DNA of 6,468 nt, taken from a virus (taxonomy: Duplodnaviria > Heunggongvirae > Uroviricota > Caudoviricetes). The notes beneath the pieces are model-generated. The model did no database searches, had not been told where the DNA came from, and worked only from the letters and a program-made list of their open reading frames with translations. Positions within the stretch are counted from its first letter, which is position 1. Each line of letters opens with the position of its first letter. Both the position numbers and the translations under genes were made by a program. The stretch lies in IMG/VR virus record IMGVR_UViG_2778261231_000010. The stretch is one strand, 5' to 3'. Shown one piece after another: positions 314 to 6,144 of this stretch.

Positions 314-447
314 TTCACTACCGCCCTTTCGGGCGGCCTCCTGATGTTCTGAGGGTGCAGAAATCCATCCGGTTAAGGATTAAATTTTATTTACAGAACT
401 GAATTTAATTATTCAGATATACGTATCTGTAGCCTTACGAATCTACT

Positions 448-497
448 CACTGGATGCCTCTTTCATAAAAATAATCCAGTGGGTTTTATCGTTTTTT
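448..497 (+). terminator. Candidate weak rho-independent terminator, plus-strand orientation
   Basis: 8-bp inverted repeat cactggat (448-455) / atccagtg (474-481) with an 18-nt loop, followed by T-rich ggttttatcgtttttt (482-497). Large loop and modest GC make it weak. No plus-strand gene is identified upstream. Confidence 0.25.
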
Positions 498-575
498 CCC
501 TGTTCGTTGACAGATAACAGGTTTTCTGTCTGTCAGTGCCAGAATCTGGCTTACCGGTATTTGCGTTTCATTCCA

Positions 576-932
576 TTAAAAAATCAGAACGCCGTGCGGC
601 CTCAACACCCGAAAGGCTTCTTTAAATCTCTGTCGCGAATCATCACGCCAGGCATCTTTATTCAGCCGTCCATATTTCTTTCCCATCCAGGCGTTATCAC
701 CAACACTCTCAAGATGCGGAGGGTCTAATACAACCATCGAAAAAGATGCGTCTGCAAATGATAATGCACGAAAATCTGCGATAATGTCAGGGCTGATAAT
801 CAAGCGTCTCCCATTGCGTAATGTGTATCCTTCTTTTCTGATATCGCTGAATATCGCCCGTTCGTCAGACTTATCGAACCAGAACATGCGGCTGCCACAG
901 CACATATCAAGAATGGTTGCCGGTGCACTCAC
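576..932 (-). CDS. SAM-dependent amino-methyltransferase-like protein (118 aa), apparently C-terminally truncated; possible pseudogene or minimal domain
   Basis: ORF-track protein has a motif I-like ILDMCCGSR near the N-terminus, an acidic residue after a hydrophobic strand (RRLIISPDI) and a motif IV-like VVLDPPHL ([D/N/S]PP[Y/F/W/H] class), then ends at HGVLIF. Starts with GTG at 932-930, overlapping the upstream stop (GTGA). 118 aa is shorter than a complete Rossmann methyltransferase fold. Confidence 0.55.
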   Translation of the reverse strand: MSAPATILDMCCGSRMFWFDKSDERAIFSDIRKEGYTLRNGRRLIISPDIIADFRALSFADASFSMVVLDPPHLESVGDNAWMGKKYGRLNKDAWRDDSRQRFKEAFRVLRPHGVLIF

Positions 933-1225
933 TGCGCCACGTCCTGAAAATTACCCTGATAGAAAGCCAGTATGCGCTGCATAACTTCGCTCTTCCGGCA
1001 CTCGCGACAGATTATGTTTAGGCGACTGTCGTAGCGACGTATTTCTCCGTCAGGTGATGACCAGATAAGGTCCGGATCAACCACAGCAGGTTTCTTCACC
1101 TTTGCCCTCGAGAGTTTTTTGCGGGCGTTTTGCCAGTCCTTACGCGCCTGTTCAGAGGGGAATAACCCGTAGCCGGAGTTGTATACATCGCCACTGGCTA
1201 CCAGCTCTCTGGCAAGAACGCTCAT
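929..1225 (-). CDS. Hypothetical prophage early protein (98 aa)
   Basis: Minus-strand ORF with GGAGG (revcomp of cctcc 1233-1237) 8 nt upstream of ATG 1225-1223. Its start overlaps the stop of the upstream ORF by 1 nt (TGATG). Not recognised. Confidence 0.6.
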   Translation of the reverse strand: MSVLARELVASGDVYNSGYGLFPSEQARKDWQNARKKLSRAKVKKPAVVDPDLIWSSPDGEIRRYDSRLNIICRECRKSEVMQRILAFYQGNFQDVAQ

Positions 1226-1509
1226 CAGATAGCCTCCATAATCGCAGGCACTAGCGCCGTGAACTTTTCACGCTTATCCCTGGTGTCGATAGCCTTCCAG
1301 CGTTCGAATATCTTCACTCGATTAACACCAAGCGCTCGCTGATCAACCGCGCCACCTTCATCTGTGACACGCTGAACATCGATGTTCGGGCGCTCTTTCA
1401 AAGCCCAGAATGCTTCAGTGATTAATATCGTCGCCTGCTCCTGTGTCATTCCTGGTCGACATATCCAGGCATCCAGAGCCTCACGAGCCTGTTCAGGAGT
1501 GATTTTCAT
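1225..1509 (-). CDS. Hypothetical prophage protein (94 aa) immediately downstream of dicC; positional equivalent of Qin ydfX
   Basis: Minus-strand ORF whose start overlaps the dicC 3' end by 17 nt. Position matches ydfX in K-12 Qin; sequence identity is not confirmed from memory, so no symbol is assigned. Confidence 0.6.
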   Translation of the reverse strand: MKITPEQAREALDAWICRPGMTQEQATILITEAFWALKERPNIDVQRVTDEGGAVDQRALGVNRVKIFERWKAIDTRDKREKFTALVPAIMEAI

Positions 1510-1720
1510 TGTTCAACCGCCCCGCCCGCTTCGTCTTACGATATTCATCATAAACTTTGGGATCATACTGAAGCTCCCCGCCAGATGCCTCCTGTAGACG
1601 CATCGCGCGACCTTCAGGAACCAGTATCCCCCAAGCAGCAACACTTGCCAGCCTCACTCCTGCGGCATTGGCAAGCTTTGTTTTGCTGCCAAAAAAAGTA
1701 ATTGCGTCAACTTTAAGCAT
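1493..1720 (-). CDS. dicC: DicC, Cro-like repressor of the Qin-type immunity region (75 aa from ATG at 1720)
   Basis: Protein MLKVDAITFFGSKTKLANAAGVRLASVAAWGILVPEGRAMRLQEASGGELQYDPKVYDEYRKTKRAGRLNNENHS closely matches my recollection of K-12 DicC. Divergent from dicA. SD AGGGGG (revcomp of 1726-1731) precedes ATG 1720-1718. The track start at 1723 is a TTG too close to the SD. Confidence 0.9.
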   Translation of the reverse strand: MLKVDAITFFGSKTKLANAAGVRLASVAAWGILVPEGRAMRLQEASGGELQYDPKVYDEYRKTKRAGRLNNENHS

Positions 1721-1733
1721 CAAATCCCCCTCT

Positions 1734-1751
1734 TGTTAGACTTTACTAACA
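1734..1751. promoter_or_regulatory. Operator-like palindrome TGTTAG-N6-CTAACA in the dicC/dicA divergent control region
   Basis: tgttag (1734-1739), acttta, ctaaca (1746-1751): perfect 6-bp inverted arms. Lies in the 80-bp gap between divergent repressor genes. Same half-sites recur at 2245-2262 and 2281-2298. Confidence 0.55.
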
Positions 1752-1800
1752 TTATTGTGCGCGGGATACCTAAGTCAAGAAAAATTAGAATTACCTAACT

Positions 1801-2208
1801 ATGGATACAAGAACCCTGGGCCAGCGAGTTCTGGCGCGACGAAAAGAATTACGCTTAACACAACGAGAAGCCGCGCGCCTCGCTGGAGTTGCTCACGTCA
1901 CAATTTCACAATGGGAAAGAGACGAAACCCAGCCAGTCGGAAAACGATTGTTTGCTTTAGCGGATGCTCTGAAGTGCTCACCTACATGGCTAATGTTTGG
2001 TGACGAAGACAAGGCACCAGTGCCTGCACAAGAACTTCATGTGGAAACAGAGCTAACTCCCAACCACAAAGAATTGATCGAATTATTCGATGCTCTTCCA
2101 TCTTCCGAGCAGGAAGCCTTGCTGTCTGAAATGCGCGCAAGAGTAGAAAACTTCAACAAACTCTTCGAAGAAATGCTTAAAGCGCGTAAAAATAAATCAA
2201 TAAAATAA
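1801..2208 (+). CDS. dicA: DicA, XRE-family HTH repressor (135 aa)
   Basis: HTH segment LRLTQREAARLAGVAHVTISQWERDETQP and C-terminus EMRARVENFNKLFEEMLKARKNK closely match my recollection of K-12 DicA (135 aa). Divergent dicC and downstream ydfABC-dicF-dicB synteny agree. Confidence 0.92.
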   Translation: MDTRTLGQRVLARRKELRLTQREAARLAGVAHVTISQWERDETQPVGKRLFALADALKCSPTWLMFGDEDKAPVPAQELHVETELTPNHKELIELFDALPSSEQEALLSEMRARVENFNKLFEEMLKARKNKSIK

Positions 2209-3251: not shown

Positions 3252-3309
3252 TTTCTGGTGACGTTTGGCGGTATCAGTTTTACTCCGTGACTGCTCTGCC
3301 GCCCTTTTT
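3252..3309 (+). ncRNA. dicF: DicF small regulatory RNA (about 53 nt plus U-tail) with intrinsic terminator
   Basis: tttctggtgacgtttggcggtatcagttttactccgtgactgctctgccgccc (3252-3304) then TTTTT (3305-3309) matches the E. coli DicF sequence as I recall it. Terminal GC-rich pairing (ggcgg 3266-3270 with ccgcc 3299-3303) plus U-run. Confidence 0.88.
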
Positions 3310-3948: not shown

Positions 3949-6144
3949 ATGAGTAAAGTCTTTATTTGCGCCGCCATTCCGGGCGAACAGGCAATAAAGG
4001 AAGAAGGTGCCGTCGCTGTAGCCACTGCCATTGAAGCCGGTGATGAACGTCGCGCCCGCGCAAAATTTCACTGGCAATTCCTGGAACATTATCCGGCTGC
4101 TCAGGACTGCGCTTATAAATTTATTGTCTGCGAGGATAAACCTGGCATACCCCGCCCTGCCCTCGATTCATGGGATGCTGAATATATGCAGGAAAACCGC
4201 TGGGATGAGGAGTCTGCTTCTTTTGTCCCGGTTGAGACTGAATCCGATCCGATGAACGTCACTTTTGACAAGCTGGCCCCTGAAGTACAGAACGCTGTCA
4301 TGGTTAAGTTCGACACATGTGAAAACATCACCGTTGATATGGTTATTAGCGCACAGGAATTGTTGCAGGAAGACATGGCAACATTCGACGGACATATCGT
4401 TGAAGCGTTGATGAAAATGCCAGAAGTTAACGCCATGTACGCTCTCTGGCCTGGTGATGTGGATGCCGGAAACATTGACGGCAGCATCCATCGCTGGGCA
4501 AAAAATGAAGTTATCGACAACGACCGCGAAGACTGGAAGCGTATCTCGGCATCAATACGCAAACAGCCTGATGCCCTTCGCTACGACCGCCAAACTATTT
4601 TTGGCCTTGTCCGTGAGCGTCCGATCGACATTCACAAAGATCCCGTAGCACTGAACAAATATATCTGCGAATACCTGACGACAAAGGGCGTGTTTGAGAA
4701 TGAAGAAACAGACCTGGGCACTGTTGATGTTCTCCAGTCATCAGAAACACAAACTGATGCAGTGGAAACTGAGGTATCTGATATCCCAAAAAATGAAACC
4801 GCACCGGAAGCTGAACCATCTGTAGAGCGTGAGGGGCCGTTCTATTTCCTCTTCGCAGATAAGGACGGAGAAAAATACGGTCGCGCAAACAAACTTTCTG
4901 GTCTGGATAAGGCACTGGCTGCTGGCGCCACTGAAATCACAAAAGAAGAATATTTTGCCCGAAAAAATGGCACATACACGGGCTTACCGCAAAATGTAGA
5001 TACCGCTGAAGATTCAGAACAACCAGAGCCGATAAAAGTTACCGCTGACGAAGTAAACAAAATTATGCAGGCAGCCAATATCAGCCAGCCTGACGCCGAT
5101 AAGTTGCTTGCTGCATCACGTGGTGAATTTGTTGAAGGGATTAGTGACCCGAATGATCCGAAATGGGTTAAGGGGATCCAGACCCGCGATTCTGTGAACC
5201 AGAACCAGCATGAATCGGAACGGAACTACCAAAAAGCGGAACAAAACAGCCCAAATGCGTTACAAAACGAGCCAGAAACGAAACAGCCTGAATCAGTGGC
5301 GCAACAGGAAGTGGAAAAAGTCTGCACCGCCTGCGGTCAGACCGGCGGCGGCAACTGCCCTGATTGTGGCGCGGTGATGGGCGACGCAACATACCAAGAA
5401 ACATTCGATGAAGAGTATCAGGTTGAAGTTCAGGAAGATGATCCGGAGGAAATGGAAGGCGCTGAACATCCACACAAGGAGAACGCTGGCGGCAATCAGC
5501 ATCACGATAGCGATAATGAAACTGGCGAAACGGCAGATCACTCAATTAAGGTGAACGGTCATCACGAAATCACATCCACCAGCAGGACGTGTGACCATCT
5601 AATGATCGACCTTGAAACCATGGGAAAAAATCCTGATGCCCCGATCATCTCAATAGGTGCAATATTTTTCGATCCGCAAACCGGAGATATGGGACCGGAA
5701 TTTAGTAAGACTATCGATCTGGAAACTGCTGGCGGAGTCATTGATCGGGACACCATTAAATGGTGGCTTAAGCAATCACGCGAAGCGCAATCGGCCATTA
5801 TGACCGATGAAATCCCGTTAGATGATGCACTGTTACAATTGCGGGAATTTATCGACGAAAACTCCGGTGAATTTTTTGTTCAGGTTTGGGGAAATGGAGC
5901 CAACTTCGACAACACGATTTTGCGCCGTTCATACGAACGGCAGGGGATCCCCTGCCCGTGGCGTTACTACAACGATCGCGATGTACGCACAATCGTTGAG
6001 CTGGGGAAAGCCATAGACTTCGATGCCAGAACGGCTATTCCATTCGAAGGTGAGCGCCATAATGCACTTGATGACGCCCGTTACCAGGCAAAATACGTTT
6101 CAGTTATCTGGCAAAAACTGATCCCGAGTCAGGCTGATTCTTAA
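3949..6144 (+). CDS. ydfE: Multidomain protein (731 aa): YdfE-like N-terminal region, acidic low-complexity linker with a C4 zinc ribbon, C-terminal DEDDh (DnaQ-like) 3'-5' exonuclease domain
   Basis: Single uninterrupted ORF, GAGG 10 nt upstream of the ATG. Occupies the ydfE position after ydfD. The N-terminus (MSKVFICAAIP...FHWQFLEHYPAAQDCAYKFIVCEDKPG) resembles what I recall of K-12 YdfE. The C-terminus carries Exo I (MIDLETMG, D554/E556), Exo II (GNGANFDNTIL, D654) and Exo III (HNALDDARYQAKY, H704/D709). CxxC-x7-CxxC lies at residues 459-473. Symbol assigned on position and partial recognition only. Confidence 0.85.
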   Translation: MSKVFICAAIPGEQAIKEEGAVAVATAIEAGDERRARAKFHWQFLEHYPAAQDCAYKFIVCEDKPGIPRPALDSWDAEYMQENRWDEESASFVPVETESDPMNVTFDKLAPEVQNAVMVKFDTCENITVDMVISAQELLQEDMATFDGHIVEALMKMPEVNAMYALWPGDVDAGNIDGSIHRWAKNEVIDNDREDWKRISASIRKQPDALRYDRQTIFGLVRERPIDIHKDPVALNKYICEYLTTKGVFENEETDLGTVDVLQSSETQTDAVETEVSDIPKNETAPEAEPSVEREGPFYFLFADKDGEKYGRANKLSGLDKALAAGATEITKEEYFARKNGTYTGLPQNVDTAEDSEQPEPIKVTADEVNKIMQAANISQPDADKLLAASRGEFVEGISDPNDPKWVKGIQTRDSVNQNQHESERNYQKAEQNSPNALQNEPETKQPESVAQQEVEKVCTACGQTGGGNCPDCGAVMGDATYQETFDEEYQVEVQEDDPEEMEGAEHPHKENAGGNQHHDSDNETGETADHSIKVNGHHEITSTSRTCDHLMIDLETMGKNPDAPIISIGAIFFDPQTGDMGPEFSKTIDLETAGGVIDRDTIKWWLKQSREAQSAIMTDEIPLDDALLQLREFIDENSGEFFVQVWGNGANFDNTILRRSYERQGIPCPWRYYNDRDVRTIVELGKAIDFDARTAIPFEGERHNALDDARYQAKYVSVIWQKLIPSQADS

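Follow-up and report, generated by a model that had tools for sequence, protein, structure and literature searches.

PamA, the phage adenine methyltransferase of the S. aureus prophage mΦ11, is a described enzyme that can be set beside the gene discussed here. It is only 141 aa long, has NPPY at residues 64-67 and methylates GATC (PMC12435837). It is like the family we are concerned with, the DPPH family, in being a tiny orphan enzyme of a prophage, in having motif IV ~65 residues from the N-terminus and in lacking a separate target-recognition domain. It differs in having NPPY, not DPPH, and in being described as Dam-like, a comparison that we make by description and not by sequence (PMC12435837). 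The intact DPPH family has no match to Pfam Dam (PF05869).

The Trm11, RsmC, RsmD and TrmN enzymes, together with (D/N)PP(Y/F) enzymes of the M.TaqI type, can also be compared. They share only 13-18% identity with the family, at TM scores of ~0.45-0.6. Their additional substrate-binding domains (THUMP, TRD) have no counterpart in the DPPH family, and they have an aromatic residue where the DPPH family has His. None of the Pfam or NCBIfam models of these families reaches threshold. The combination that makes a TRM11 protein (a THUMP domain, a methyltransferase domain with DPPY and a match to the Trm11 model) was not found either.

Our locus lies in a viral DNA stretch of 6,468 nucleotides, and by the window we mean the whole of it. 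Its direct homologues are the intact E. coli members of the family (P0002, P0004, P0006), to which the window ORF is 82-86% identical and with which it shares motifs I-IV, DPPH included. The window copy also holds the position typical of PHROG 954 members, in an early operon beside DUF977/LygF or Ead/Ea22 genes. What separates it from the intact members is a premature stop (K119*), a +1 frameshift, nine further replacements at conserved residues, and the absence of αE, β6 and β7. We believe, with a probability of about 0.9, that the feature is a pseudogene: the twice-broken remnant of a ~160-residue class I SAM-dependent methyltransferase in a defective Qin-type E. coli prophage. The pseudogenes of other E. 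coli cryptic prophages (Qin, Rac, CPS-53 and others) show the same decay of accessory and replication genes by nonsense changes, frameshifts and deletions in a defective lambdoid prophage that is passed on vertically, and nothing notably different is seen here.

The DPPH family and its possible substrates

The intact proteins form a ~160-aa phage and prophage family, held as PHROG 954 and in PADLOC as PDLC03288 (MTase_II) and PDLC03730 (oMTase); E. coli WP_201479387.1 is an example. These profiles cover an intact protein from end to end (PHROG 954 'DNA methyltransferase', E 7e-88; PADLOC MTase_II, 1e-73, and oMTase, 2e-49). Pfam and NCBIfam contain no family-specific model for the window ORF or four intact members, which match only the generic Methyltransf_11 and Methyltransf_25, near or below threshold. 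The same five proteins do not reach the gathering threshold of the curated DNA amino-methyltransferase Pfams (PF01555, PF02086, PF05869, PF02384), and only 2 of 95 diverse members match PF01555 (N6_N4_Mtase) at all, weakly, with E 3e-4.

The family is large. An exhaustive profile search gave 2,439 clusters (50% identity), of which 320 reach E <= 1e-30, and tblastn finds the gene in 256 phage records. The hosts of these phages include Streptococcus, Vibrio, Acinetobacter, Porphyromonas, Listeria, Gordonia, Lactobacillus, Enterococcus and Staphylococcus. Among phages of Proteobacteria, Firmicutes, Actinobacteria and Bacteroidetes the protein is 45-65% identical to that of E. coli, an unusually high value for a phage accessory protein; it has no target-recognition domain. 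The ~155-aa DPPH methyltransferases of Corynebacterium and Bacteroides phages also fall within this range. Many metagenomic homologues have N- or C-terminal extensions; these are not conserved and contain no Pfam domain, which points to miscalled starts or fusions as their probable origin. Intact copies sit in the early operons of lambdoid and P22-like prophages, beside Ead/Ea22 genes; in the P22-like ones the gene lies in the PL-side accessory region, between abc2/DUF2737 and Ead/Ea22.

Across the 95 diverse members D30, R32, P48, P71 and P72 are invariant. At least 90% of them share L8, D9, C12, G13, D49, D53, F54, D70, H73, Y87, G88, W95, E105 and R108, and beyond codon 118 also K119, W120, T150 and K157. 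The first-pass annotation had called the DPPH of the window ORF unusual. The motif is indeed present there, but it is a hallmark of the whole family and not a peculiarity of this copy. Because the His is conserved family-wide, we also reject the idea that DPPH is a degenerate DPPY. Our literature search for DPPH as motif IV, or for DPPH against DPPY, turned up nothing relevant.

What would such an enzyme do? The intact protein is most likely an orphan, early-expressed nucleic-acid amino-methyltransferase. This reading draws on the gamma-type motif order with DPPx after β4, on the placement in early operons, whether behind the replication genes as at our locus or in the PL-side region, and on the occasional adjacency or fusion of copies to parts of larger phage DNA methyltransferases. 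Its predicted role would be to methylate DNA at N6-adenine or N4-cytosine and so shield replicating phage DNA from host restriction. Small size is no obstacle to DNA methylation, since PamA methylates GATC with 141 aa. It is important to realize that the name 'DNA methyltransferase' is a database label for this family and not a result. We found no biochemical or experimental report on any DPPH-family member in the literature, the ST131 methylome paper makes no mention of the family, and a minimal ~155-aa DPPH family without a target-recognition domain has apparently never been characterised.

The alternative that survives best is that the intact family acts on something other than DNA, namely RNA (e.g. 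m2G or m6A in tRNA or rRNA), protein or a small molecule, with the window copy as a relic. We consider this possible but unlikely. The arguments for it are not trivial: the family has no target-recognition domain, its 45-65% identity across the phages of four phyla suggests a universal substrate, PGAP names one intact member a 'TRM11 family methyltransferase', its Pfam matches are confined to generic models, and the top structural neighbours include Trm11, Bud23, RsmC, TrmN and small-molecule N-methyltransferases. Fold searches do not tell DNA, RNA, protein and small-molecule methyltransferases apart. A PDB sequence search with the family profile gave nothing significant (best E 0.19). The fold class is certainly Rossmann, and in our view the substrate cannot be read from a modelled fold. 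Against this alternative, DPP[YFWH] after β4 marks nucleic-acid and protein amino-methyltransferases, a signature reportedly set out by Malone, Blumenthal and Cheng in 1995. PHROGs and the PADLOC restriction-modification and orphan models class the family with DNA methyltransferases, some copies adjoin larger phage DNA methyltransferases or are fused to parts of them, and PamA demonstrates that tiny phage DNA methyltransferases exist.

A somewhat different version of this doubt concerns specificity. High cross-phylum conservation without a recognition domain is unusual for sequence-specific DNA methyltransferases, so a non-specific or non-DNA substrate is conceivable. The family might methylate DNA independently of sequence or act on ssDNA, on a conserved RNA site, or on a defence-linked nucleotide or small molecule. 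We hold a substrate other than a specific dsDNA sequence to be a tentative proposition, and an orphan nucleic-acid amino-methyltransferase stays our preferred reading of the intact enzyme.

Some homologues of ~248 aa from enterobacteria (P0009, P0076, P0106) have an extra C-terminal domain of ~85 aa, with matches to PHROG 16025 and to the C-terminal end of PHROG 111, the latter being large phage DNA methyltransferases. In E. coli A19 there is an overlap between the small methyltransferase gene and the beginning of the gene for a 328-aa 'DNA-methyltransferase' (L005 3020-4006).

The broken gene at 443-932

The ORF at 576..932 is on the minus strand, starts with GTG at 932-930, stops with TAA at 578-576 and encodes 118 aa. 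Motif I, the SAM-binding loop ILDMCCGSR (residues 7-15; 888..914, minus strand), makes up β1 and the following loop in the AF2 model. Motif IV, VVLDPPH (residues 67-73; 714..734, minus strand), follows 60 residues later at the end of β4. Beyond the TAA the same frame continues as WNETQIPVSQILALTDRKPVICQRTGKKR, 29 codons, and then meets a second TAA at 488-486. The first-pass annotation had noticed the ORF, the motifs and the open codons, all of them with correct coordinates.

The methyltransferase likeness it had proposed is far above chance. A profile search puts the ORF in PHROG 954 'DNA methyltransferase' (E 6.7e-58) and PADLOC MTase_II (E 4.5e-45), and a protein-collection search, for which the query was the ORF plus the post-stop peptide, returned 2,814 homologous clusters. 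The gamma-type order that had been suggested also holds for the family, which has motif I LDxCCG, an acidic motif II (D30), motif III (D53-F54) and motif IV DPPH. The acidic residues that bind ribose and adenine in class I methyltransferases, D30 and D53-F54, are all kept in the window ORF (FSDIR, ADF). A (D/N/S)PP(Y/F/W/H) tetrapeptide directly after β4 defines the exocyclic-amine (N6-A/N4-C/N2-G) nucleic-acid methyltransferases, and DPPH at residues 70-73 comes after model strand 64-69. The marks of class I are present in the intact protein too: a seven-stranded β-sheet with strand order 3-2-1-4-5-7-6 and a glycine-rich motif I loop after β1.

Both profile matches break off early. The window ORF covers positions 52-165 of the 229 in PHROG 954 and positions 3-122 of the 169 in MTase_II, and intact P0006 reaches positions 204 and 164. 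The window ORF is therefore a homologous fragment and not a complete member. Intact homologues, which go by the name 'class I SAM-dependent methyltransferase', are ~157-167 aa long and align to 95-99% of the query made of the ORF and the post-stop peptide. The first-pass annotation had judged 118 aa too short for a full enzyme. This is right in that the ORF is truncated against its homologues, but the intact protein itself has only ~160 aa, so that 43 residues, and not half of the enzyme, are missing.

The ancestral gene, now a pseudogene, can be traced by collinear DNA alignment over 443..932 on the minus strand, ~162 codons from GTG 932-930 to the ancestral TAG at 445-443. This span is collinear with the intact gene of E. 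coli A19 (L005 3999-4487) and with other copies. The first lesion is the premature stop TAA at 576..578 (minus strand), where the family has AAA for Lys119; at column 358 of alignment A3 the window reads TTTTTTAATGG and other E. coli copies read TTTTTAAATGG. Lys is found here in 94 of 95 family members. The second lesion, 26 codons further on, is a GGG run with one extra G at 498..500 (minus strand), a +1 frameshift in codon 145 or 146. Intact or other copies have GG at this place, and column 436 of the same alignment shows ACAGGGAAAAAACGAT in the window against ACA-GGAAAAAACGAT. The shift turns QRTGKNDKTHWIIF into QRTGKKR*, so that GKNDKTHW becomes GKKR*, and it produces the second stop TAA (486..488, minus strand; seen by translation past the first stop). 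With both lesions corrected the translation runs ...LIFKWNETQ...QRTGKNDKTHWIIFMKEASSE*. Comparison with full-length homologues thus locates the truncation point exactly, at K119*, and reveals a second lesion besides.

In summary form the family sequence reads ...LIFKWNETQIPVSQILALTD.KP.I.QRTGKNDKTHWIIF.KE. The protein alignment gives ...GVLIFKWNETQIPVSQILALTD.KP.I.QRTGKNDKTHWIIF.KE, with Lys at the window stop and ...GKNDKTHWIIF.KE past the second one. Since the family sequence runs through this stretch, the post-stop peptide is homologous coding sequence. Among the family residues past motif IV (K119-W120, P138, T150, F155, K157), K119 has become the stop, and T150, F155 and K157 are out of frame.

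AF2 models intact P0006 as a compact Rossmann sheet, with pLDDT 94.7 and pTM 0.89. The 95 diverse representatives were needed in the alignment for a confident model; 24 close homologues gave pLDDT 50. In it we see β1 at 7-9, β2 at 26-30, a hairpin at 34-46, β4 at 64-69, αD at 95-109, β5 at 110-121, αE at 127-131, β6 at 138-141 and β7 at 150-156. The stop at codon 119 strips 43 residues: the end of β5, αE, β6 and β7. On the strength of this model, any 118-aa product that might be made would be expected to be unstable and inactive. The fragment may still be translated, with motifs I-IV and a start coupled to the upstream gene both kept.

The rest of the gene has drifted as well. In 24 enterobacterial orthologues 92 positions are conserved at 90% or more, and the window allele departs from them at 10 (H36Y, C39R, D40N, P58S, V66M, F69L, R76S, T94A, G102R, K119*); for intact members the median is 1 and the highest count 3. 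F69, G102 and K119 are conserved at 94-99% even over the 95 diverse members; position 69 is Phe in 94% of the family and Leu in the window copy. Truncation against full-length homologues, the two lesions and these excess changes at conserved sites bear out the decaying orphan methyltransferase that the first-pass annotation had offered as one of its readings. Of the two things it had named as telling against decay, a homologue of 118 aa that is active on its own and a lack of any match to the methyltransferase fold, we found neither.

The broken allele is common. Of 5,426 complete E. coli genomes, 382 contain a stretch at least 99% identical to window 430-940, which is nearly always chromosomal, and 480 records have copies at 95% identity or above. 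All four near-identical copies that we inspected (PhiR42_1, ATCC 8739, and strains H1 and 2022CK-00450) have both lesions. The same two lesions in a phage record and three complete genomes exclude sequencing error as the origin of the stop. A conserved 118-aa isoform is rejected as well, because the database proteins of 118 aa (P0007, P0008, P0024, P0032) are all at least 95% identical to the window ORF.

Annotation pipelines already treat near-identical copies as pseudogenes in some genomes. PGAP calls two 98.8% variants with the same two lesions (L011 1514-1958, L012 1511-1955) 'frameshifted; internal stop'. The identical 118-codon ORF in ATCC 8739 (L003 7147-7503) and in many other genomes is an ordinary CDS to PGAP, WP_001310834.1. 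Other copies have broken in other ways: a separate copy of the methyltransferase gene in an E. coli O157:H7 prophage remnant (L004 4029-4502) decayed independently through W95*, and what phage HannyBb (L002 2934-3140) has left is a fragment of 68 codons, divergent after ...ADFRAL. Loss of this accessory gene is evidently frequent.

Could the 118-aa product instead be a selected minimal domain, such as a SAM-binding regulator, a dominant-negative partner or half of a split enzyme? The first-pass annotation had raised a minimal regulatory domain, and one can point to the intact motifs I-IV, the translationally coupled GTGA start, the frequency of the allele with every inspected copy truncated, and the many genomes in which PGAP accepts the ORF. 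We think it highly improbable. Only one lineage of near-identical alleles (95% identity or more) has the 118-aa length, and it resides in a cryptic prophage that is inherited vertically, so its frequency in 382 genomes reflects descent and not selection. The excess of conserved-site replacements speaks against selection, truncation after β5 would lay the core sheet of the AF2 model bare, and no downstream ORF in a usable frame supplies the missing β6-β7, a segment that is itself frameshifted.

The weakest alternative, a full-length enzyme made by TAA read-through, alone or with a programmed frameshift at the G/A run, is scarcely credible even though the 29 codons after the TAA encode a peptide homologous to the family and the second lesion lies inside a GGGAAAAAA run that is slippery in look: a full-length product would take two independent recoding events, the stop context is TAA then T with no evident downstream stimulatory structure, and intact relatives have AAA and GG in one unbroken frame, so the window state is derived damage and not a conserved recoding signal. 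The readthrough-extended product that had also been suggested does not hold, since read-through alone still meets the frameshift and would give 148 aa without β7 (KTHWIIF).

On the pseudogene reading the ancestral gene encoded a ~160-residue stand-alone class I methyltransferase of a very widespread temperate-phage accessory family. The copy in this Qin/dic-type cryptic prophage was broken twice: the codon of Lys119, a nearly invariant residue, became TAA through an A-to-T change, and 26 codons on the frame was shifted by one extra G. Replacements at conserved residues have built up as well.

We see the window copy as one more decayed accessory gene, from which no unexplained methylation is expected. 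The inconsistent RefSeq annotation has a practical side: methylome or pan-genome studies could count the broken ORF WP_001310834.1 as a candidate methyltransferase. The intact DPPH family is abundant and unusually conserved, which makes it mildly interesting and a reasonable methylome target; the window copy is ordinary.

The prophage around the gene

The surroundings identify the prophage. Window 300-1231 matches Escherichia phage PhiR42_1 at 99.9% identity, and window 75-1231 matches the Qin prophage of E. coli ATCC 8739 at 100%. A complete DicF antisense sRNA lies at 3253-3304 on the plus strand (Rfam RF00039, 76.7 bits, E 3.7e-16), which marks a prophage of the Qin/dic type. The operon holding the pseudogene begins with a Cro/DicC-like gene at 1493..1723 on the minus strand (Pfam P22_Cro, E 5.1e-12), with a promoter-like -35/-10 match at 1778-1751 on the same strand. 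A cI/DicA-like repressor of 135 aa (1801-2208, plus strand) diverges from it. The cro-side placement claimed at first sight is thus correct: the methyltransferase remnant is downstream of the P22_Cro-type gene and on its strand.

In ATCC 8739 and PhiR42_1 the order is dicC, a YdaT/cII-like gene, an O-like replication protein, LygF/DUF977 and the methyltransferase. Compared with both, the window lacks 1,346 bp of this early region, with the junction at 1225-1231. The deletion joins the first 94 codons of the YdaT/cII-like gene (1225-1509, minus strand) to the last 98 of LygF and removes the O-like replication gene, so the prophage is defective and does not replicate itself. What is left of LygF/DUF977, its C-terminal 98 codons, is the upstream neighbour of the remnant (929..1225, minus strand; Pfam DUF977 E 8.5e-17, profile positions 48-134 of 134). 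The full LygF of PhiR42_1 and HannyBb has 140 aa and contains this sequence. A search of the literature for 'LygF' gave only lysozyme papers and Salmonella genome notes. The LygF stop TGA overlaps the methyltransferase start GTG (GTGA), and such stop/start overlaps are usual in coupled phage genes.

Several smaller observations concern the rest of the window. Just downstream of the methyltransferase remnant, at 131-313 on the minus strand, is a further decayed gene, which PGAP annotates in near-identical genomes as 'DUF7167 family protein, internal stop'. Window 1632-2127 has no megablast-level match to the dicC-dicA region of ATCC 8739, and its flanks match at 95-98%. It holds the N-terminus of the Cro-like gene, the operator region and most of the 135-aa repressor, and it looks like an immunity-module swap. 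At 3949-6144 on the plus strand a 731-aa protein carries a C-terminal Rv2179c-like 3'-5' exoribonuclease domain (Pfam E 2e-67). Its homologue in PhiR42_1 is annotated as exodeoxyribonuclease VIII. The ATCC 8739 homologue has 825 aa, and the window lacks ~280 bp of it, with the junction near 4438.
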